10,037 nucleotides of DNA from Planctomycetota bacterium (GTDB lineage: Bacteria; Planctomycetota; Planctomycetia; Pirellulales; Lacipirellulaceae), in NCBI GenBank assembly GCA_039190745.1, contig JBCCXZ010000096.1:1-10037 (forward strand). Direction: 5' to 3'. A model generated the notes under the pieces. That model made no database searches. It was not told the origin of the DNA and worked only from the letters and a program-made list of their open reading frames with translations. The position numbers and the translations under genes were made by a program. Below are positions 622 through 10,037 of this stretch, piece after piece. Every line of letters begins with the position of its first letter. Positions within the stretch are counted from its first letter, which is position 1.

Positions 622-1128
622 CTACTGCTTGGCGGCCCTGCGGGCGGCCCAGTGGGCGCGGTCGAACAGCAGGCAGTGCAGCAGGATCGGCAGCTCGTAG
701 ACCGACAGCAGGAAGAACAGCGGGAAGCCCTTCTGGTACTTCTCGGCGAACTCGCTCATGTCGTGCGACTCGTCGTAGACGTCGTGATTCCAGTTCTGGA
801 ACTTGTGCCACACGAAGATCAGCAGCACGTACACCCACCAGGGTACTAACGGCGCGGCCCGGAACGCGGCGAACAGCAGTCCGATAAACAGCAGCGTGGC
901 TACCCACACCGTGAAGGGGACGTTGAGCAACAGGATGCCGAAATACACAACCAGCACGCCGCCGACGATCCACTGCCCGGCCGGTTCGGGGAAACTGTAG
1001 GCGATGCCGAACAGCGAGATGTAGATCCCCACCACCGCGATGAGGTGCATCACGTTGATGCCGAACTGCGAGTGGCGGCAGAGGTGGCGGCGGTAGAGCT
1101 CGTCGAAGTTGACGTTCAGCAGGTTCAT
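622..1128 (-). CDS. Integral membrane protein, DUF962/Mpo1-like
   Basis: 168 aa with about 4-5 hydrophobic segments. The N-terminal Y-x-x-H-x-x-x-H...N-x-x-H ([17 protein letters not shown]) and later W-x-x-x-Q-x-x-x-H-x-x-Y-D ([13 protein letters not shown]) resemble the DUF962/Mpo1 pattern. Co-oriented, 44 nt downstream of the aminotransferase, and ends in tandem stops TAG TAA. Confidence 0.65.
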
Positions 1129-1172
1129 GGCCTGGCCCGTGGGGCTTTTTGGGTTCAGGGATTGGGGTTGGT

Positions 1173-3290
1173 TTACTCTTGCTTGGCGAAGGGCCGCGGC
1201 AGCGTGCGGGCGATGCCGGCCGCGGCGAGCGACGGCAGAGGGCGGCGGAGCACGGCCCCGACCGTCCGGCAGACCTGCTCGACCTCGTCCTCGGTGACCG
1301 ACAGCGGCGGGGTGAACTTCAGCACGTTGGTCTCGTACTGGCAGAAGCCCATCAGCACCGGGAACGTCGGCTCACGCAGCATGCCCAACAAACAGAGCCG
1401 CGGCAAGAGCTTCTTGAGCGCCGGCACACGAAGAGTCGAATCATCGAGCTCGATCCCGATCAGCAATCCGTAGCCCCGGACCTCCCGCACACGGCCGCAG
1501 CCGGCGAGGTGGTGATTGAGCCGGTCGACGAACAGCCGGCCGCGGTCACGCACCTGGTCGACCAGCCCCTCACGCTCGGCGCGGCGGAGCGAGTTGACCA
1601 CGGTCCGGAAACCGTAGTCGTAGTGGAACCGGCAGGCGAAATCCTGGCCGATGCTGCACCCGCGCTCGGCTAATCGCTGCTGGACACGCTCCGAGTGCAT
1701 CGAGAACGCGAACGGGTAGACCATGTCGGAGGTCGCCTTGCCGACGGTCAACAGGTCGGGCTCGACGCCGAGTTCGGCCGAGCGGACGAACGGACCAGTG
1801 CGGAAGAAGCCGGTCTGCACCTCGTCGATCAGCAGCAGGCAATCGTGTTCTTCGCGGAGCCGCTTCATGCGTTCGATCACCGCAGACGGGACCTCTCGCA
1901 CGCCGCCGACGCCCTGCACCAGCTCCGACTGGATCACGCCAATCGGGTGCTCGTCGAACGCGCGGCCGAGCTGCTCGACCGCGTCGGGCGCGAACGGGTC
2001 GACGTACACCACGTGCGGGTAAAGCGGGTCGAGCCCGGCCCGGAGCTTCGGCTTCCAGGTTCCGGTGAGCGCGAAGAGCGTCTTCCCGCCGAAGCCGCCG
2101 CGGAGCACGAGCACGTGGCTTCTGGGGTGCTGCGAGGCGAGGCCGATCTTCAACGCGTTCTCGACGGCGCTGGCTCCGCTCACCGCGGGGACGGCGTGCT
2201 CGAGGCCGGTCAGCTCGTACAAGCGGCGGAGCACTTCGGTGCGGCACGCCTCGGCGTCGCCTGTGTTGGTGATCTCCTCGACGTAGCCGGAAGGGTTGTG
2301 CCCGCGGACGCTGCACGCCACGCCGGCGACGCCGTCGAAGACCCGGCGGCCGCGGTCGACGATGTCGTGCCCGTCGACGTGCAGGTCCCGCTGCCGGAAG
2401 CCGACGGTCTGGATGAGCTTCACCAACGATGGGCTGTAGAGGTCGGCAAACACCCGACTGCGGAAGTCGAGGTCGTCTTCGATCCGCCGGAGCGCGTCGC
2501 GGTGCGGCTCCACCAACTCGGGGGCGTCGGCCTTGAGCCGCTCGACCAGGTGCAGATTGCTGATAGTGTTCGGCTGGTAGGTCGTGGAGTGGAACGTGGC
2601 CATGCCCTTCTTCAGCCAGTGGCCGAAGAGCGACTTCCCCGCGCCGAACGCGCCGAACGGCACGTCGCGGCCGACGAGCGATTCGTCGAAGACGACGATG
2701 TCCGGCGCGGGGCCGTCGTCGGTCTCACGCGAGTTGTCGAGATTGGTCCACACGACGACCAGCGGGGCGGCGCCCCGGTCGCGGCCATCAAACCACAGGC
2801 GGAGTGGGTTTGAAGCGGATCGCCACGCGTCGTGGGCGACGACGACGAAGCCGACCTCCGAGGTTCGTTGCTCTAGCACTTTCACGGCGGCAGCCGCATC
2901 GCCGAACACATCGACGCCCGGCAGGTACTGCACGTCGCCCTCGGGCAGCTCGGTCCGCGCGAAGTGCGAGAGCTCGCCCCGCTCGTCGAGGATCAGCCCC
3001 GCGTTCGGCCGGCCCTCCGCGTTGCGGCTGTAGCGGGCGAGCTTCACGGCGCCGCTGAGCGCCTCGTCGCGGCTGTTGGCGAGGAACACCTGCTGGTCGG
3101 CTTCGGCGTCCGGCCAAATGCGACGCGTCGTTTCGGACAGCAGCAGGCACGCCTGGGCCACGTGCGGGTTGAGGTACAACCGCAGCAGGTTCGGCGTCTT
3201 GGAACCGATCATCTCCCGGCAGCTCCGGTCGAAGAGCGATTCGCCCGACGCGGGGCTACATGCTGTGCTTGCCGGGGTTGTGCTTGGCAT
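1173..3290 (-). CDS. PLP-dependent class III aminotransferase with an internal duplication (degenerate N-terminal copy plus catalytic C-terminal copy)
   Basis: The C-half has VFDGVAGVACSVRGHN, SGASAVENALK, ELVQGVGG, LLLIDEVQTG (D489), PDLLTVGK (PLP Lys518, nt 1737-1739), VRGYGLLIGIEL and VLKFTPPL. The N-half repeats class-III motifs in degenerate form. The start is uncertain: ATG 3290 overlaps the upstream gene by 35 nt, and ATG 3212 is an alternative. Confidence 0.9.
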   Translation of the reverse strand: MPSTTPASTACSPASGESLFDRSCREMIGSKTPNLLRLYLNPHVAQACLLLSETTRRIWPDAEADQQVFLANSRDEALSGAVKLARYSRNAEGRPNAGLILDERGELSHFARTELPEGDVQYLPGVDVFGDAAAAVKVLEQRTSEVGFVVVAHDAWRSASNPLRLWFDGRDRGAAPLVVVWTNLDNSRETDDGPAPDIVVFDESLVGRDVPFGAFGAGKSLFGHWLKKGMATFHSTTYQPNTISNLHLVERLKADAPELVEPHRDALRRIEDDLDFRSRVFADLYSPSLVKLIQTVGFRQRDLHVDGHDIVDRGRRVFDGVAGVACSVRGHNPSGYVEEITNTGDAEACRTEVLRRLYELTGLEHAVPAVSGASAVENALKIGLASQHPRSHVLVLRGGFGGKTLFALTGTWKPKLRAGLDPLYPHVVYVDPFAPDAVEQLGRAFDEHPIGVIQSELVQGVGGVREVPSAVIERMKRLREEHDCLLLIDEVQTGFFRTGPFVRSAELGVEPDLLTVGKATSDMVYPFAFSMHSERVQQRLAERGCSIGQDFACRFHYDYGFRTVVNSLRRAEREGLVDQVRDRGRLFVDRLNHHLAGCGRVREVRGYGLLIGIELDDSTLRVPALKKLLPRLCLLGMLREPTFPVLMGFCQYETNVLKFTPPLSVTEDEVEQVCRTVGAVLRRPLPSLAAAGIARTLPRPFAKQE

Positions 3291-4986
3291 CGGGGAGCTC
3301 GTCGCGCATGAAGGCCAGGAACTCGGCGCTGGTCTTGCGCTTCATGAACAGGTCGGCAGAAACGCAATCGCGATCGCCGAAAGGGGAGTGCGGCAGGCCG
3401 TCGGCCCGGACGTAGCGGAGCTGGATCTTCGAGAGCGGCAGCCGCTGGTGGGCCGCCCAGAAGACGGCGAACTGCTCCTCGGTGAGGAACAGCTCGACGT
3501 GGAAGCCGATCCGCTTCACCAGCTCGTGGAACAAGAACGAAACGACGGGCGTCTCCTCGATCCGGTCCCAAAGCCGGCCGATCTTGTCGCGGGGGACTTC
3601 CAGCAATCCCTCGCCGGCGGCTTCGCTGGTGTAGTATTTGCTGACTTCGATCTGGCTGTCGCCCGCTTGGGCCTTGCGCACCTCGATATTGGACGCCTCC
3701 GAATCGTGGAAGACGCCCCACACTTGCTCGGCCTTGGGCGAATCGAGTTCTTCCCGCCGCACGAAGTAACCGCTCTTGGGCTTCGTGTTCAGCCGCAGCC
3801 GCAGGGCGAGCACGCCGCTGGGCGGGTAGTACATGCAGCGGTCGAAGTCGGCGTCGCCCCGGCGGACGCGCAGGAAACGATCCGCCGCGGGGTCGTAGAG
3901 CAGCGCGCTCTCGAGAGTGTCGCCCAGCGTGGAGTACTCGCTCCCCGAGCCGTGCACCGGCACGAAGAACACCGTGCCCATGCTGATGTAGGAGTAGTTC
4001 GGCACGACGTAGAACTCTCGGCCGGCGGCGTCGAGCTCGGTGATCGCCCGCTTGAGGGTTACGCCGGCGTCGACTTCGATCGATGCGCCGCGGACCCGCG
4101 CCCGTCGTCCCGTCTCGACGGTCTTCACGATCGTCTTGCCGGGGTACTTCCAGCCGAAGTGGGTCACGCCGGTGTTGTACCCCGCGATCGCGACGTGGCG
4201 GGCGTTGTACGGGTTGTAGAGCGCGAGCAGCTCGCGGACGGACTGCGGCTCCATCACGCCTATCCGGAAGCGCCGCCAGGGGGCGTGGACGCGAGCACCA
4301 ATGGAACCGACGAGCGCAATCAACCGACCGACAAACAGATACGACAACGCCAAGCAGACCGCATGCAGCACCGAACCGACCACGCCCTTCGGCTCCGGCA
4401 GGGCTTCAGCAAGCGCTCGGTTGGCGCCGAGCAGCGTGAGCGTGCGCAGGCTCGGCCACGCTGGCTTGGCGTGCAATGCGTGGACGGCTTGTTCCAACTC
4501 GGCGGGTTCGACGAAGCAGCTCCGCCAGCCGGCGGTCAGCAGCGGCCGCAGCCACGAGGGGCCGGCGGCGGTGAGGTTCCCCAGGCGGAGCACCGCGACC
4601 CTGCGGCGGGTTTCTTCTTGGCACAACGCAATGGCAGCTCGCTCGGTTTCGATCCAACGGTGATCACCGAAGTGAGCCGAGAACGAAGAGAGCAACGCCA
4701 CGCGGCACTCGGCGGTCGCTTCCAAGCACTCTCGGATCGCGTCGCGGTCGGCGGGCTGCCAATCGCGCCCGAGTGACACAGCGAAGCCGAGGCTAGCACC
4801 CTGGCTCTGAGCGTCTTCGATCTGTCGCCTCAGCTCATGGACGGAACCGCAGACCGGGCCCCGGTTCTGCGCTTGTTCACGCACACCGTCGGGCAACTCC
4901 CCATGGAGGTCGACCCAGACCACACGCGTGGCAAGATCGGCGGACGGCGGTGCGGGCTCGGCCTCTGTCGCAAACGCTTCGCTCAC
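3256..4986 (-). CDS. FAD-binding oxidoreductase (VAO/PCMH fold, aldonolactone-oxidase-like) with an N-terminal degenerate SDR-like domain and a hydrophobic linker; about 576 aa
   Basis: I re-called the start to GTG 4986 because it overlaps the psd stop (GTGA). The ORF-track extension to 5526 lies in another frame of psd. PCMH-type motifs: PQSVRELL, IEVDAGVTL, PNYSYISMG...VHGSG...TLGD. The C-terminal IQLRYVRAD and HNPGK resemble the ALO-family 'ExR' and 'HWGK' elements. Confidence 0.75.
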   Translation of the reverse strand: MSEAFATEAEPAPPSADLATRVVWVDLHGELPDGVREQAQNRGPVCGSVHELRRQIEDAQSQGASLGFAVSLGRDWQPADRDAIRECLEATAECRVALLSSFSAHFGDHRWIETERAAIALCQEETRRRVAVLRLGNLTAAGPSWLRPLLTAGWRSCFVEPAELEQAVHALHAKPAWPSLRTLTLLGANRALAEALPEPKGVVGSVLHAVCLALSYLFVGRLIALVGSIGARVHAPWRRFRIGVMEPQSVRELLALYNPYNARHVAIAGYNTGVTHFGWKYPGKTIVKTVETGRRARVRGASIEVDAGVTLKRAITELDAAGREFYVVPNYSYISMGTVFFVPVHGSGSEYSTLGDTLESALLYDPAADRFLRVRRGDADFDRCMYYPPSGVLALRLRLNTKPKSGYFVRREELDSPKAEQVWGVFHDSEASNIEVRKAQAGDSQIEVSKYYTSEAAGEGLLEVPRDKIGRLWDRIEETPVVSFLFHELVKRIGFHVELFLTEEQFAVFWAAHQRLPLSKIQLRYVRADGLPHSPFGDRDCVSADLFMKRKTSAEFLAFMRDELPDAKHNPGKHSM

Positions 4987-5999
4987 GGGGCGCCCTCGGG
5001 GCTTCGACCCTTCCAGCCCGACTGGCCGCCGCAGCCCGGGGCGAAGCAGTAGGCCGGCTCGCCGTAGCGGACCTTGTCGTCGCTGGAGATGAAGGCGTAG
5101 CAGTCCTCCTGTGGTTCGGTGAGCATGATCACAGTCGAGCCGAGCTCGAACGTGGCGGCCCAGTCGCCGGCTTCGAGTTCGATCGGCTGTTCCAACACGG
5201 CGGCCGAGACCTTGCCGCGACGCATGCCGAGCTTGCGGTTGGCCCGGACCTCGCCGTCGGGGTAGGGGTCCGCGATCCCGGAGGGCCGGTCGGCCCAGCG
5301 GTAACGGGCGGTGAAGGGCAGGGTGATGTTGCCCACGCCCCAGCCGGCGACCATCACCAGCAGGCAGCGGCCCCACTTCGTTTCCAGGTGCAGCACGACG
5401 CGTTCGTTGAGCGTAAAGACGGGGAACTCCTGCCGCTGGAACGGCGGGTGCACCAGCAGGCGGTGCCCCGGCACGTGGGTCACACGGGTGAGCTTGGCGT
5501 TCTGCGGCGCGAACACACGATGGCAATCGACCGGCGAGAGAAAGAAAATCGAGAACGCCCCGCCGTGGAACGGCCGGGTATCCGTCTGCGGAACGAGCGA
5601 GGCGAGCGAGTAGCCGATGCCCTTGGCCGTCATCACGGTGTCGCCGTCGATCGTGCCGAGGTCCTGCACGGTGCCGTCGACCGGGCAGAGCAGGTTCAGG
5701 TCGGGGCGCTGAAGCGGGCGCGACTCCGGTCGAACGCCGCGGGTGAACAGCTCATTGAGCGAGCGGTAATCGCCGATGGGCTGCTCCATCTCCTCTTCGC
5801 AGAGCGGCGAGTACTTGCTGCCGTACACCTCGCGGAAGAGCTTCTCGCGGAGCGAGCGGCTGGGGATCGGCATCTTCGACAGCCGCACCGCCAGAGACGC
5901 GGCCAGCACGCTCGCCGGCCCGCCGTGGATCTTGCTGGCTTGCTTGAACTGTTCGATGCGAGCTTGTGTATTGGTGGGTGTTTGGGTTTTCGAAGACAC
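4983..5999 (-). CDS. psd: Phosphatidylserine-decarboxylase-family pyruvoyl proenzyme (divergent; substrate uncertain)
   Basis: LNELFTRGVRPESRP, LLCPVDG (D108), AKGIGYSL, LSPVDCHR (H160), LNERVV and the FELGSTV self-cleavage motif (S288; LGST at nt 5133-5144). GTG start with an AAGGA RBS at 6006-6010. The symbol marks the family, not proven PS activity. Confidence 0.88.
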   Translation of the reverse strand: MSSKTQTPTNTQARIEQFKQASKIHGGPASVLAASLAVRLSKMPIPSRSLREKLFREVYGSKYSPLCEEEMEQPIGDYRSLNELFTRGVRPESRPLQRPDLNLLCPVDGTVQDLGTIDGDTVMTAKGIGYSLASLVPQTDTRPFHGGAFSIFFLSPVDCHRVFAPQNAKLTRVTHVPGHRLLVHPPFQRQEFPVFTLNERVVLHLETKWGRCLLVMVAGWGVGNITLPFTARYRWADRPSGIADPYPDGEVRANRKLGMRRGKVSAAVLEQPIELEAGDWAATFELGSTVIMLTEPQEDCYAFISSDDKVRYGEPAYCFAPGCGGQSGWKGRSPEGAP

Positions 6000-6005
6000 A
6001 GCCAG

Positions 6006-6010
6006 TCCTT
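6006..6010 (-). promoter_or_regulatory. Shine-Dalgarno site for the psd-like gene
   Basis: AAGGA on the minus strand, 6 nt upstream of the GTG at 5999, within the 14-nt gap after the GMC stop. Confidence 0.6.
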
Positions 6011-6013
6011 CGG

Positions 6014-7531
6014 TTACATTTCTTGGACCGCAACCGCCGCGACACGCAACGCGTTCGCGGCGATGGTGAGCGACGGGCCGACGCCCATCGAGTTGGGCAG
6101 CACGCTGCCGTCGACCACGAACAGGTTCTCGCGGCCGTACACGCGGCAGTCCGGGTCGGTCACGGCCTGCTTAGGGTCGGTCCCCGAGCGGAGTGTGCCG
6201 CACTGGTGGGCGACGTGCTCCTGGGAGGGCATCGCCTTGGTGGCCACGTGCCAGGCGCCGCCGCGGCGGAGGATCGCCCGCATCGCCCGGGTGAGCGCCC
6301 GGCCGCGGACGCGGTCGAACTTTGAGTAACGGTGCTCGAGGCCGATCGAACCGTCGCTGCGCAGCGTCACGCGGTTGGCGGGGTCGGGCAGGTCTTCGAC
6401 GATTCCGACCATCGGCAGCATCCGCTTCCTGAGCTTGAGCAGCACGCGCTTGGGGACCTTCTTCAGCCCGCTCTTGGCCATCATCAGCGGCCCCGGCGCG
6501 GGCAGCGATTGGACAATCCCCATTTTGGCCATGCACCGCGGCGTGCCTAGGTAGTAGTCCGCAAATCCGACTTGCTTGATGAACGTCTCGTCGGCCCCCG
6601 TCGCGGCGGGGAAGAACCCCACGGCCAGCGGCGAGTAGTGCAGCATGTAGTTCCGCCCGACGTTGGGGCCGTCGATACCCGACTTCAGCATCAACGCCGT
6701 CGAGCCGATCGCCCCGGCCGCTAAAGCGTAACGCTGTGCGCGGAAGCGGTGAGTTTGCTGATTGTTCCGATCGCGGACGACGACGGCGTCGACGCTCCCG
6801 TCTCGGTTGGTCTCCAGCCGATCCACTTCGGCGTTGTCCATCAACCGCACGGGGCCGGCGGTTTCGTCGAGCACGTGGGCCGAACTCCGGCGTGCGTCGT
6901 GCGGGCAGAGAAACCCCGCGCAAGCGTCGCACAGCTCGCACTTGCCAGTGTCGATGGCGAGCGGTAACTGAAACGGTTTGAGTCCGGCGCGCTGGTTGGC
7001 CGCGATCAGCTTCTGGTTGATCGGCGCCAGCGGCAGAACGCTGCCGAAGAGCTGATCTCCCGGCGGGTGCAGCGGATCGTACCCATCATTCTCTTGTTCC
7101 CCTCGATGCCAGGTGAGCTTGAAGAGCTGTTCAGCCCGATCGTAGTGCGGGCGGAGGTCGTCGTAGCTGAAGGGCCACTGCCAGAGGGCCCGGTCGAGGC
7201 GGTCGCCGTACTGGGCCCCGGGTTCGAAGTCGCACGGCGCGGGGCGGAGCATCAACGCGCCGTACACGGAGGTGCTCCCGCCGACCACGCCGCCCATGTA
7301 GAGCCGCGCAGGCGCTTCGTTGACGTACACAATCCGGTCGTCGTACGGTCGCTTGTCGAGCAGTGTGGCCCGTTCGTCGTGCGGGCCGCCGGGGTAGGAC
7401 TCCAGCACGGCGGCGGTCCGGCGGCCCCGTTCGATCACGAGTACGCTCTTGCCGGCCTGTGCGCAGGCGTGGGCGAACGAGGCCCCGCCGGCCCCGCTGC
7501 CGATGACAATCGCGTCGAAATCTAGCTCCAT
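6014..7531 (-). CDS. GMC-family (glucose-methanol-choline) FAD oxidoreductase, about 505 aa
   Basis: I re-called the start to ATG 7531 (MELDFDAIVIGSGAGG), immediately before the Rossmann GxGxxG motif. Other motifs: VLVIERG, GGVVGGST, WPFSYDDLRPHYDRAE, CxxCxxCxxxxCP, LAAGAIGST, VGRNYMLH, EDLPDPANRV, HQCGT (catalytic His442), NLFVVDGSVLP and PSLTIAANALR. Confidence 0.93.
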   Translation of the reverse strand: MELDFDAIVIGSGAGGASFAHACAQAGKSVLVIERGRRTAAVLESYPGGPHDERATLLDKRPYDDRIVYVNEAPARLYMGGVVGGSTSVYGALMLRPAPCDFEPGAQYGDRLDRALWQWPFSYDDLRPHYDRAEQLFKLTWHRGEQENDGYDPLHPPGDQLFGSVLPLAPINQKLIAANQRAGLKPFQLPLAIDTGKCELCDACAGFLCPHDARRSSAHVLDETAGPVRLMDNAEVDRLETNRDGSVDAVVVRDRNNQQTHRFRAQRYALAAGAIGSTALMLKSGIDGPNVGRNYMLHYSPLAVGFFPAATGADETFIKQVGFADYYLGTPRCMAKMGIVQSLPAPGPLMMAKSGLKKVPKRVLLKLRKRMLPMVGIVEDLPDPANRVTLRSDGSIGLEHRYSKFDRVRGRALTRAMRAILRRGGAWHVATKAMPSQEHVAHQCGTLRSGTDPKQAVTDPDCRVYGRENLFVVDGSVLPNSMGVGPSLTIAANALRVAAVAVQEM

Positions 7532-7639
7532 GCGGTCGTGCTTCGGGAATGGGGGCCGGGGTGCCGACGGCGGCGGTCGGCTTGACAAACAGCCGCGGCC
7601 GGGTGGGAAACCCCACAGCCTAGCACGCATCCCGGCACC

Positions 7640-7720
7640 GTATTGCCAGCGGGTGCCCCGAATCTTAAAACATGCTTTCCGGTGAGTTTAACCGCGGGGC
7701 CTATTTTTGGGCGTTTATCC
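7640..7720. promoter_or_regulatory. Probable divergent promoter region (locally AT-rich)
   Basis: AT-rich patch between divergent genes. Plus strand: TTGCCA (7643-7648), 17 nt, TAAAAC (7666-7671). Minus strand: TAAGAT (7667-7662) with TTAAAC 18 nt upstream (7691-7686). Both are imperfect sigma70-like matches. Confidence 0.3.
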
Positions 7721-7870
7721 CGAGTCTGTTTGCCGCGGCGAAGCAGCCTCTCCACGTTTCTCCGCTTCACAACAGACTCGGCCGCTGTGCCCAGCGACGC
7801 ATGACGCGTCGTCAGCCCGGCCCGGTCTTTGTCCTGTAGGGTCTTGAAGGCTCAAGGAAGTCTCCGAGTC

Positions 7871-8704
7871 ATGAGCACAGCGACTATCCAGCGTCAGTAC
7901 GACGAACTGATCGCCGACAACTACGACGCCGACCCGCAGGGACTAACCGGCAAAGCCCTCGATCGCGCACTCGATCAACTCGCCGACGCGGGCTGCCTTG
8001 CCGGAGACGGCGACCTGAAATCCATCGACGTGGGCATGGGGACCGGCTTGTTTTTCGACAAGCTCGCCTCCCGCACCGACCGGGAGATCGGGCCCTACGG
8101 CATCGACCTCTCCCAGCGTATGCTCGAGATTGCCCACGAGCGTATCCCCGAGCTGCGGTACGCAGTTGACGACGCGGCCAACCTTGACGACCACTTTGTG
8201 GAAGACCTCTTCGATCTAGCGTGCACCCACTTCATCACTGGGTTCGTGCCGCTGGCCGACCTGGCCCCCGTCATCTGGAACAAGCTCCAGCCAGGCGGGT
8301 ACTGGTCGTTCGTTGGAGCCTCCAGCGATGCATTCCCGGGCTTGCAGAAGCGGGCCTCCTCGAAGCTGATCCAAATGCTGGTCGGCAAACGCAGCTCAAA
8401 CCTCGATGAGTTGATCACGCCCAACGACCAATCCGCCGTCGAGGGCATCTTCCGCGGCAGCGGGTTTGAGGTGGTCGCTGCTGAGACGTTCCAGCCCAGG
8501 CTCTCCTTCCAAAACTTCCGCGAGTTCATGGAGTTCGCCTACCTGGGCGGCTGGCTCACGCCGTTCATCGAAGAGCTCGGCTTGCAAAAGGCGCCCCCGT
8601 ACCTGCGGATGCTGCTCAACCGGTTCTTTTTCCCAATGCAGGACCACCACACTATCGTGCTGGGCGTGGCGCGGAAGCCGCTCGAAGTCGGCGCTGCGGA
8701 GTGA
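7871..8704 (+). CDS. Class I SAM-dependent methyltransferase, about 277 aa
   Basis: ATG 7871 (MSTATIQRQYDELIADNYD) is preferred over TTG 7829. Motif I IDVGMGTG (nt ~8024-8047), GIDLSQRMLEIA, DDAANL, FDLACTHF and motif III LQPGGY. Confidence 0.9.
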   Translation: MSTATIQRQYDELIADNYDADPQGLTGKALDRALDQLADAGCLAGDGDLKSIDVGMGTGLFFDKLASRTDREIGPYGIDLSQRMLEIAHERIPELRYAVDDAANLDDHFVEDLFDLACTHFITGFVPLADLAPVIWNKLQPGGYWSFVGASSDAFPGLQKRASSKLIQMLVGKRSSNLDELITPNDQSAVEGIFRGSGFEVVAAETFQPRLSFQNFREFMEFAYLGGWLTPFIEELGLQKAPPYLRMLLNRFFFPMQDHHTIVLGVARKPLEVGAAE

Positions 8705-8757
8705 GTCGGAGCGTTCCAGCGGCGCTGGCCTGTTAGCGTCCAGAGGGGGCTGAGCCT

Positions 8758-10023
8758 ATGCGTGTCGCGATCGTCGCGGAGGTTTATCTGCCGAAGGTTG
8801 ACGGCGTCGTGATGCGCACGATGAACCTTATCGATTGCCTGCTGAAACGCGGCGACGAGGTGCTGGTCGTCTGCCCCGAGGTTCCCCGCCGCGGCGAGAG
8901 CCCCGTACCGCTGGTCGAGTTTCCCAGCTTCCCGTTCCCCGACTACCCGGAGTACCGCATCGGGCTTCCGGACGCACGCCTTCCCAAGGCGCTACAGGAT
9001 TTTGGGCCCGACGTAGTGCACTACCTGAACCCGTTTGCCTTCGGCTTCCGCTGCCACGACGTCGTACGCAAAGCGAAGCTTGACTTGCCGAGCGTCTTCT
9101 CGTTCCACACGCTCTACGGCGAGTTCGTGAAGCAGTACCCTTTCCTGAGCCCCCTCTCGCCGGTGCTGTGGTGGTTGACTAAGCAATACCACAACCGGGC
9201 CGACGCGAACCTTACGGTCTCGACCGTTATGCGCGACGACCTGACCGACCGCGGGTTCGAGCGCGTGCATCTGTGGCCGCCGGCGGTCGACAGCGAGTTG
9301 TTCCGCCCCGACCGCGCTACCGCCGCGATGCGGGAACACCTCTCCGGTGGACGCCCAGACGGCCCGCTGCTCCTGACCGTCTCAAGGCTGGCCCCCGAGA
9401 AGAACGTCGAGTTCCTTGCCGAGGTCCTGCGGCAAACCCCCGAGGCCAGGTTGGCTGTCGTCGGCGACGGCCCGCAGCGTGCTGAGCTCGAGCGCCGATT
9501 CGAGGGTACGAATGCAAACTTCGTCGGCTACAAGAGGGGCGAGGAGTTGGCCGAGGCCTACGCGTCTGCGGATGCGTTTGTCTACGCTTCTGAGACCGAG
9601 ACGCTCGGCAACGTTATTCTCGAGGCGATGGCCAGCGGGCTCTCGGTGGTGGCGCCGCGGGCGGGCGGCATCCCCAGCATGGTCGAAGAGGGAGAAACCG
9701 GGCTCCTGTTCAACCCGGGCGACACGGCCGACGCAGTCGCCAAACTGGCTGCAGTCCTCCAAGACGACGACTTCCGAACCGAGATGGGCCAGAAGGCCTT
9801 CGAAGCGGCCTCCGGGCAGTCCTGGGAGAACTCCGCTGACCGGGTTCGGGAATACTACCAGAAGGCCGCCGAGGCCCACCGCAACGGCGACGGGGCCCTT
9901 CAGTTGCGTGGGGGGCTGGCGCAGGCAACCATCGACTCGCTTGTCCTTGCTTACAGGGCCATGTCCTGGGCCCAGCAGGGCAAAGAACCGGCTGTACAGC
10001 CGTCCGAATCGCGGCCAAACTAG
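8758..10023 (+). CDS. GT4 (GT-B, retaining) glycosyltransferase, SqdX/SQD2-like putative glycolipid synthase
   Basis: MRVAIVAEVYLPKVDGVV, FPDYPEYRIG, SFHT, HNRADANL, FRPDRATAAMREHLSGGRPDGPLLL, RLAPEK, VGDGP and the E-x7-E motif ETLGNVILE (E281-E289). Purine-rich RBS AGAGGGGG at 8742-8749. Confidence 0.9.
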   Translation: MRVAIVAEVYLPKVDGVVMRTMNLIDCLLKRGDEVLVVCPEVPRRGESPVPLVEFPSFPFPDYPEYRIGLPDARLPKALQDFGPDVVHYLNPFAFGFRCHDVVRKAKLDLPSVFSFHTLYGEFVKQYPFLSPLSPVLWWLTKQYHNRADANLTVSTVMRDDLTDRGFERVHLWPPAVDSELFRPDRATAAMREHLSGGRPDGPLLLTVSRLAPEKNVEFLAEVLRQTPEARLAVVGDGPQRAELERRFEGTNANFVGYKRGEELAEAYASADAFVYASETETLGNVILEAMASGLSVVAPRAGGIPSMVEEGETGLLFNPGDTADAVAKLAAVLQDDDFRTEMGQKAFEAASGQSWENSADRVREYYQKAAEAHRNGDGALQLRGGLAQATIDSLVLAYRAMSWAQQGKEPAVQPSESRPN

Positions 10024-10037
10024 TTACATGTCCCGCC

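Follow-up and report, generated by a model that had tools for sequence, protein, structure and literature searches.

The stretch of DNA analysed here, referred to as the window, spans 10,037 nucleotides and is the entire contig JBCCXZ010000096.1 (C96) from a genome of a Planctomycetota bacterium (assembly GCA_039190745.1; 3.9 Mb, 95.5% complete). It carries seven enzyme genes in two divergent units (Table 1). The leftward unit comprises five genes, encoding a GMC flavoprotein, a phosphatidylserine decarboxylase (PSD)-like protein, a flavin oxidase, a class III aminotransferase and an Mpo1-like protein. The rightward unit begins with a methyltransferase followed by a family 4 glycosyltransferase (GT4). 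Open reading frames of all seven were found where the first-pass annotation, made from the sequence alone, had placed them, and the junctions it listed are exact: a 14-nt gap between GMC and psd-like genes, a GTGA overlap of psd-like and oxidase genes, a 35-nt overlap of oxidase and aminotransferase genes, 44 nt from aminotransferase to Mpo1-like gene and 53 nt from methyltransferase to GT. No Rfam match was found in the window.

Table 1. Features of the window, with predicted functions
Feature	Position	Strand	Remark
Mpo1-like (DUF962-like) small membrane protein; predicted Fe-dependent C-C-cleaving dioxygenase	622..1128	-	
Class III pyridoxal phosphate (PLP) aminotransferase, predicted single-chain pseudo-dimer (dead N-terminal and active C-terminal copy)	1173..3290	-	
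Degenerate extended short-chain dehydrogenase/reductase (SDR) domain fused to VAO-type flavin oxidase (alditol oxidase / DprE1 / galactonolactone dehydrogenase fold)	3256..4986	-	
PSD-like pyruvoyl enzyme without phosphate-binding side chains	4983..5999	-	
GMC flavoprotein, bacterial glucose/fructose dehydrogenase type, four-Cys motif	6014..7531	-	
Divergent promoter region; weak 11-bp-period TTCAC (Pho-like) repeats near 7652-7682 and 7842-7861	7532..7870	.	
Class I S-adenosylmethionine (SAM) methyltransferase; predicted amine N-methyltransferase	7871..8704	+	
GT4 glycosyltransferase; predicted glycosyl/glucuronosyl-diacylglycerol synthase	8758..10023	+	
First codons of plcP-like (LpxH-family) metallophosphoesterase gene, rest on contig C57	10028..10037	+	ATG at 10028

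The cluster had been taken to end at 10023, which turned out to be too short. The rightward unit continues into a plcP-like gene, whose ATG lies 4 nt past the GT stop and which is found complete at the start of contig C57, followed there by an OlsF/GlsA-like O-acyltransferase gene. The overlap of C57 with the window end is ~91% identical at protein level, and the C96/C57 junction may join two close variants. The first ~120 bases of C57 (L087:1-240) resemble the plcP start inverted, probably an assembly artefact or a strain mixture.

The families proposed for the seven proteins stood for the most part. Pfam cut-offs are passed by the GMC, PS_Dcarbxylase, Aminotran_3, class I methyltransferase (Methyltransf_25, 36.9 bits) and GT4 proteins. 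FAD_binding_4 in the flavin oxidase stays below its cut-off (21.2 vs 26.4 bits) and the DUF962/Mpo1 label is weak: the window protein reaches 11.4 bits against the PF06127 cut-off of 24, and a weak match of this kind (E<=1) is seen in 13 of 30 family members, the best at E 0.0029.

To define the conservation of the cluster, 79 loci were fetched from a species-level genome collection by a profile of 48 flavin-oxidase homologues; two pairs among them share the same metagenome-assembled genomes (MAGs). The five-gene core is whole in 62 of the 63 loci with room for it, and its order is identical in all 66 loci holding all five genes, more than chance would give. Neighbours were counted in the 47 loci that extend 6 kb or more to both sides. 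The methyltransferase is present in 45 of them, the GT clade in 33 and the plcP-like gene in 28 (36/79 overall); PAP2 (10/47), PhnZ-like (4/47), PmtA/OlsG-like (3/47), PhoX-like (2/47) and acyltransferase genes (2/47) are rarer. The seven genes are one conserved, apparently undescribed pathway. This agrees with the coupling noted in the first-pass annotation and with its statement that it knew of no characterised pathway with this combination, as no description of the gene set was found in literature coverage from which most subscription journals are absent.

Distribution of the cluster is patchy: it was detected in 2 of 40 relatives, in 7 of a further 300 genomes from the order and in none of 400 drawn from the phylum, with a positive control recovered in 5/5. 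Cultured carriers include Singulisphaera acidiphila DSM 18658 (L065), Singulisphaera sp. GP187, Aquisphaera insulae JC669 and Paludisphaera soli JC670. Four record titles are not Planctomycetia or Phycisphaerae, naming Trichodesmium, Chitinophaga, Ca. Kuenenia and an unclassified bacterium; presence in the records titled Trichodesmium, Ca. Kuenenia and Chitinophaga (L046, L063, L077) reflects either mis-binning or transfer outside Planctomycetia. An extended variant, with PAP2, alpha/beta-hydrolase-like and plcP-like genes downstream of GT, is found in L014, L032, L052, L062, L073, L077, L079 and L082, its hydrolase-like gene belonging to no NCBIfam family. Phosphonate-catabolism-like genes (by eye HD-domain PhnZ-like, FAD oxidoreductase and DUF5690-like) or a PhoX-like phosphatase gene lie beside the cluster in L035, L042, L043, L077, L082, L075, L078, L079, L080 and L081.

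The core might instead degrade or salvage an amino- or glycolipid, or its nitrogen or carbon, the methyltransferase, GT and plcP-like genes being a separate remodelling module that shares the regulon. Oxidases, transaminases, decarboxylases and Mpo1-like proteins are also catabolic types. Placement of the methyltransferase-GT module varies, upstream and divergent or downstream in either orientation, so that neither its position nor its direction is fixed with respect to the core, and 14 of the 47 loci with room lack the GT clade. In spite of this rearrangement the methyltransferase stays with the core in nearly all loci, and among neighbour families of the fetched loci no transporter, exporter, hydrolase or CoA ligase family recurs with it. 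We therefore regard a catabolic core as unlikely. The start of a POT oligopeptide transporter gene (3-536, cut by the contig end) was tried as a part of the cluster and rejected, being found in only 1 of 79 loci and showing no link outside the genus. In the genomes of five GT-less loci, the best GT match lies elsewhere and is a 37-40% paralogue; one of these has an 11.8-bit regulatory box (see below) upstream, and such a paralogue might possibly substitute for the missing clade.

The PSD-like protein departs from known decarboxylases at its substrate contacts. In an alignment of 70 rows, the Asp-His-Ser triad and LGST self-cleavage motif of true PSDs are retained (D108 70/70, D158 66/70, H160 69/70, LGS288 70/70). 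E. coli Y137 is replaced by F153 in 69/70 and S166 by L182 in 63/70 (P in 6). Equivalents of both are lost in 70/70 rows (at the S166 column, 69 rows with a residue and one with a gap), and no Tyr, Arg or Ser stands at the phosphate-contact columns. An arginine, R180, is near-invariant (69/70). Double mutation of Y137/S166 strongly lowers the activity of E. coli PSD (PMC7952604). Compared with that enzyme and the phosphatidylserine-phosphatidylethanolamine-phosphatidylcholine route (PMC7952604), the cluster shares a pyruvoyl enzyme with D90/D142-H144-S254 equivalents and LGST, along with a SAM methyltransferase; it differs in the lost contacts, a Phe at the position of His147, the new conserved Arg and the missing pssA.

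In the window genome, the PSD-like protein is the sole PSD and pgsA the sole CDP-alcohol transferase. A phosphatidylserine synthase gene (pssA) was not found in this 95.5% complete assembly, and its PLD-family matches are by eye cardiolipin-synthase-like and polyphosphate-kinase-like. The genome (L088, L089) carries pgsA and a PmtA/OlsG-like methyltransferase, with no detectable pssA or ordinary psd, and may be devoid of a phosphatidylethanolamine route. Among five other cluster genomes, a second psd occurs in four, and in 4/4 it adjoins a pssA-like gene; these carriers thus keep separate housekeeping psd-pssA pairs. Since the phosphate contacts are lost, the catalytic residues kept and pssA is missing from the genome, the enzyme likely decarboxylates a phosphate-free serine-type lipid. 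An ordinary phosphatidylethanolamine/phosphatidylcholine route could be argued from the fact that the protein passes TIGR00163 (137 vs 111.75 bits) and is the only PSD of its genome; the residues, the pssA not found in the 95.5% complete assembly and the true psd-pssA pairs elsewhere speak against a housekeeping psd, which we rejected, and leave this route, like the betaine lipid variant discussed below, very improbable.

Both flavoenzymes resemble sugar/polyol oxidisers, one of them also the lipid-linked-sugar oxidase DprE1. Best PDB matches of the GMC protein are FAD glucose dehydrogenase (E 1.6e-29) and fructose dehydrogenase. Its C198/C201/C204/C209 are conserved in 60-61 of 61 sequences and H439 and H442 in 60/61; Gly485 occupies the usual Asn position in 59/61. 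Together with the PSD-like triad and replaced phosphate contacts, this is consistent with the earlier remark that intact catalytic cores are combined with altered substrate contacts. The flavin oxidase has the PCMH FAD fold, HG motif and C-terminal Lys of VAO/aldonolactone-oxidase-type enzymes. In the aminoarabinose route, ArnA and ArnB carry out oxidation of a uronic acid, decarboxylation and amination. The cluster is similar to ArnA/ArnB and DprE1/DprE2 in that oxidation of a uronic acid or lipid-linked sugar would be followed by decarboxylation or amination, and to DprE1/DprE2 also in the pairing of SDR with flavin oxidase, the DprE1 fold match having been computed here. Unlike either, it has a class III aminotransferase and a degenerate SDR half, and would use a diacylglycerol (DAG)-linked sugar with onward ring cleavage. 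In P0014 (888 aa) the PSD-like protein is fused to the flavin oxidase, a single case that is possibly an assembly or frameshift product.

The aminotransferase displays the class III fold, DEVQTG motif and PLP lysine. Its N-terminal copy has no PLP lysine and keeps the Thr loop; the C-terminal copy has the lysine and no Thr loop. The protein is likely a tandem-duplicated class III enzyme acting as a single-chain pseudo-dimer, as judged from these motifs. Direct comparison of the two halves is non-significant (HHalign 1.2%), and phmmer of the N-half against PDB gave aminotransferase matches only at E>=0.3; only when six canonical class III enzymes of the genome were combined into a profile did the match emerge. 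The protein differs from ArgD, YgjG and PigE in that the Thr loop of the partner subunit seems to come from a dead N-terminal copy in the same chain.

In the Mpo1-like protein, H15 (67/69), H19 (68/69), N25 (67/69), H28 (69/69), Q111 (69/69), H115 (69/69) and E145 (68/69) are conserved, a His/Asn/Gln pattern which we take to be similar to the catalytic residues of Mpo1. In the Atlas it has a feature match of 0.91 to a cluster that is 11% Mpo1-like; its third feature match leads to a cluster whose members are 61% viral, mostly Nucleocytoviricota. Mpo1 uses O2 to break a C-C bond at a carbinol (PMC10398889). The window protein is similar to this yeast 2-hydroxy fatty acid dioxygenase (PMC10398889) in being a small membrane protein with conserved His/Asn/Gln/Glu and a weak Pfam match; it differs in scoring below the Pfam cut-off, in its location inside a sugar-oxidation operon and in its predicted substrate, a lipid-linked ketol. 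A search for fused eukaryotic Mpo1-like forms gave only one longer match, a fragment fused with the aminotransferase, which is weak evidence. P0121 (383 aa) joins the C-terminal part of the aminotransferase to the Mpo1-like protein, again a single case and possibly an assembly or frameshift product.

The rightward unit places the cluster in a lipid context. The methyltransferase falls in its own Planctomycetota cluster of the Atlas, with no characterised close relative. Best NCBIfam models of GT4 are lipid glycosyltransferases, both below cut-off (GlcNAc-PG synthase, 129 bits; monoglucosyl-DAG synthase, 102 bits), and the protein presumably resembles SqdX/SQD2. What we take to be a UDP-glucose-dehydrogenase-like motif is present in the window genome. 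The gene 4 nt after GT encodes an LpxH-family metallophosphoesterase, whose orthology with PlcP is taken from family and context. Adjacency of plcP to genes for non-phosphorus lipids is a known pattern (PMC4796936). As in plcP-agt and plcP-btaAB loci (PMC4796936), a PlcP-like protein has a GT4 and a SAM methyltransferase as neighbours; a putative Pho box upstream is strong across the family and weak in the window. Unlike in those loci, no btaA was found (in a search whose control matched nowhere), five extra tailoring enzymes are present in a fixed operon, the order is methyltransferase-GT-plcP and the host belongs to Planctomycetota. The membrane-lipid and phosphate-limitation context suspected at first thus gains from the plcP-like, PAP2 and PmtA/OlsG-like neighbours and from the Pho-like box.

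Two known phosphorus-free lipids were tried as products and set aside. Diacylglyceryl hydroxymethyltrimethyl-beta-alanine (DGTA) is assumed to arise by decarboxylation of diacylglyceryl trimethylhomoserine (DGTS) (PMC10685587). The gene btaA (DUF3419) was found neither among recurring neighbours nor in any of five genomes searched (the own one and four others), in a search whose control matched nowhere; DGTA via DGTS shares the very low probability of the phosphatidylethanolamine/phosphatidylcholine route. As to sulfolipid, what we take to be the SqdB motif is absent from the own genome and present in 1 of 5 others, in a search by motif that used no profile or control. A soluble product, such as an aminated and methylated sugar derivative or an osmolyte, would suit the GMC, alditol-oxidase, class III aminotransferase and methyltransferase folds, which often act on small soluble molecules. 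PSD, Mpo1-like, lipid-type GT4, PlcP-like, PAP2, PmtA/OlsG-like and O-acyltransferase proteins are all membrane-lipid families, and no exporter recurs, so that we consider a soluble product quite unlikely.

De novo motif search upstream of GMC revealed a direct repeat, TTCAC-N6-TTCAC, with 11-bp period. This period is the pattern of PhoB/PhoP. Under leave-one-out matrices, a site of at least 12 bits is present in 34 of the 57 de-duplicated GMC upstream regions, versus 2.5% of shuffles; the test is somewhat generous, as the full matrix had served to pick its sites. The same matrix was run over seven PBP_like_2 loci of five carrier genomes: a coding-strand site of 10.6-20.3 bits lies within ~150 bp upstream of four of five pstS-type genes, and neither of two tupA-like genes (labelled by eye) has one upstream. 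The repeat is likely a Pho box, though a weak one in the window. As such it points to saving of phosphorus, not to gain of carbon or nitrogen as expected of a catabolic core. Upstream of the methyltransferase, a motif search picked up mostly the GMC coding start, which is not a regulator site.

Taken together with its plcP-like neighbour, the conserved cluster is likely a phosphate-starvation aminolipid pathway. That a decarboxylase without phosphate contacts is encoded in a phosphate-starvation locus, along with a methyltransferase and enzymes that release DAG, suggests a phosphorus-free counterpart of the phosphatidylserine-phosphatidylethanolamine-phosphatidylcholine series, and the same neighbours favour DAG over ceramide or hopanoid. 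Pyruvoyl decarboxylases need a free alpha-amino acid. Because an intact amino-sugar ring offers none to the PSD-like enzyme, the sugar would be an intermediate that is cut open, not the end product, and a betaine-type ether lipid is more likely than an amino-glycolipid. Thus, of the head-group assembly proposed by the first-pass annotation, the phosphorus-free lipid and a DAG anchor are favoured, and the amino-glycolipid end product is judged less likely.

One lipid suits these demands in particular. Diacylglyceryl carboxyhydroxymethylcholine (DGCC), DAG-O-CH(COO-)-O-CH2CH2-N+Me3, is phosphatidylcholine with a carboxylated carbon replacing phosphorus. Its head is an acetal (PMC10362313), and label from methionine enters the head group (PMC5835749). 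A glycoside would be a fitting start, because its C1 is already an acetal between DAG and another oxygen; glucuronosyl-DAG is present in Diacronema lutheri (PMC11771548). We tentatively propose, at slightly less than even odds, that the product is DGCC or its less methylated forms, made from glycosyl-diacylglycerol.

The route would run as follows. PlcP, with PAP2 where present, would free DAG from phospholipids, and GT4 would make glucuronosyl-DAG. One flavoenzyme would oxidise C4, and the resulting beta-keto acid would drop C6 as CO2, presumably as in ArnA; the class III aminotransferase would then aminate C4. The second flavoenzyme would make a 2,3-ketol, which the Mpo1-like protein would split between C2 and C3 with O2. 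The product of this cleavage would be DAG-O-CH(COO-)-O-serine, a phosphatidylserine analogue with a carboxylated acetal carbon in place of phosphate. From it the PSD-like enzyme would take off C3 as CO2, with Arg180 likely holding the acetal carboxylate, and the methyltransferase would add three methyls. Sugar C1, C2, C5 and C4 would end as the acetal CH, the carboxylate, O-CH2 and CH2-N, respectively. Either flavoenzyme might perform either oxidation, and oxidations, loss of C6, amination and cleavage might run in another order. The gene set, namely one GT, two sugar oxidases, an aminotransferase, a C-C-cleaving dioxygenase, a decarboxylase and a methyltransferase, would fit this route, which would also agree with the methionine label, the one labelling result known, and with the glucuronosyl-DAG of Diacronema lutheri.

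Another undescribed phosphorus-free aminolipid, be it a methylated amino-sugar-DAG, a differently cut ether head or a ceramide-based analogue, is a possibility of lesser but real weight, and corresponds to the general reading in the first-pass annotation. Pho-linked lipid evidence and a phosphate-free PSD substrate support it equally, DGCC is unreported in bacteria (PMC7242380) and the known Mpo1 substrate stems from sphingolipid turnover (PMC10398889). On the other hand, an intact amino-sugar would leave without an alpha-amino acid a PSD-like enzyme that is part of every complete core, the neighbours release DAG, not ceramide, and DGCC is already a known lipid of phosphatidylcholine type.

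A lead from the DGCC proposal to algae comes from the flavin oxidase, and does not extend to support for the pathway as a whole. When 1.84 billion representatives were searched by profile, a distant tier of full-length flavin oxidases came up; Prymnesium parvum, a Prymnesium MAG, Pinguiococcus pyrenoidosus and Rhodopirellula are named among 20 proteins looked up. In a further search, proteins with an intact SDR domain turned up from cyanobacteria and planctomycetes. In P. parvum cultures, putative DGCC-like lipids have been described (PMC13431280). It is possible, at rather less than even odds, that the cluster represents the first DGCC genes, that bacteria make DGCC under phosphate starvation and that haptophytes or other algae use a related route including the Prymnesium oxidase. 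A stand-alone family, an intact epimerase-type SDR joined to the same flavin oxidase, occurs in planctomycetes, cyanobacteria and Pinguiococcus (loci L105:1807-3699, L106:1668-3113, L107:5523-6151, L108:5636-7546, L109:2104-2692). Its neighbours, labelled by eye, include a ketosphinganine-reductase-like SDR (L105), a BtaB-like methyltransferase (L107), and fatty-acyl-AMP-ligase-like and Asp/Asn beta-hydroxylase-like genes (L109).

Several observations speak against a phosphate-controlled DGCC pathway related to that of algae. Box copies in the window score only 5.0-7.8 bits and the one in a same-genus genome 8.8 bits; in the own genome validation failed, as no score exceeded 6 bits upstream of the pstS-like gene or 11 bits around phoX. 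Among 24 free-standing methyltransferase genes, a site of at least 12 bits lies upstream of only 5, and the GT clade is wanting in the loci mentioned above. Seven steps were matched to seven genes with the genes already in view, and the identity of the product, like the predicted N-methylation, ketol cleavage and GT sugar donor, is read from genes. DGCC was called unprecedented in bacteria when tentatively found in deep groundwater (PMC7242380) and is stated elsewhere to be reported only from marine organisms (PMC10685587). Planctomycete lipids as listed in PMC7828035 and PMC7397252 are ornithine lipids and phospholipids. For the carrier Singulisphaera acidiphila, a review names methylated ornithine lipids, in passages that do not give the phosphate supplied for growth, and has no mention of DGCC. 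The algal lead depends on one enzyme. No diatom or dinoflagellate is named among the 20 proteins looked up; in a tree of 35 rows, a very long branch carries the P. parvum protein on the cluster side, and the homologue from Pinguiococcus joins the stand-alone clade. None of five (mostly short) metagenome loci of that clade holds another cluster gene, and the idea that the intact-SDR tier is another version of the cluster was accordingly rejected.

In phytoplankton, DGCC is a major lipid that spares phosphorus. Its synthesis is described as unknown or little known (PMC10685587, PMC7242380, PMC8227023, PMC5835749, PMC10362313, PMC3237563), one of these papers terming the ignorance of the pathway a "very conspicuous gap". 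With a compact operon in cultured strains, this long-open question becomes directly testable. If the proposal is true, the cluster would supply search profiles for algal DGCC genes, and DGCC, found unexplained in deep groundwater (PMC7242380), would no longer be a strictly eukaryotic biomarker. Carving a head group out of a sugar ring would be chemistry without precedent and categorically new. If the product is another lipid, Planctomycetota would still have in this cluster an undescribed membrane pathway for phosphate starvation, one that includes a repurposed PSD and an aminotransferase built as a single-chain pseudo-dimer.

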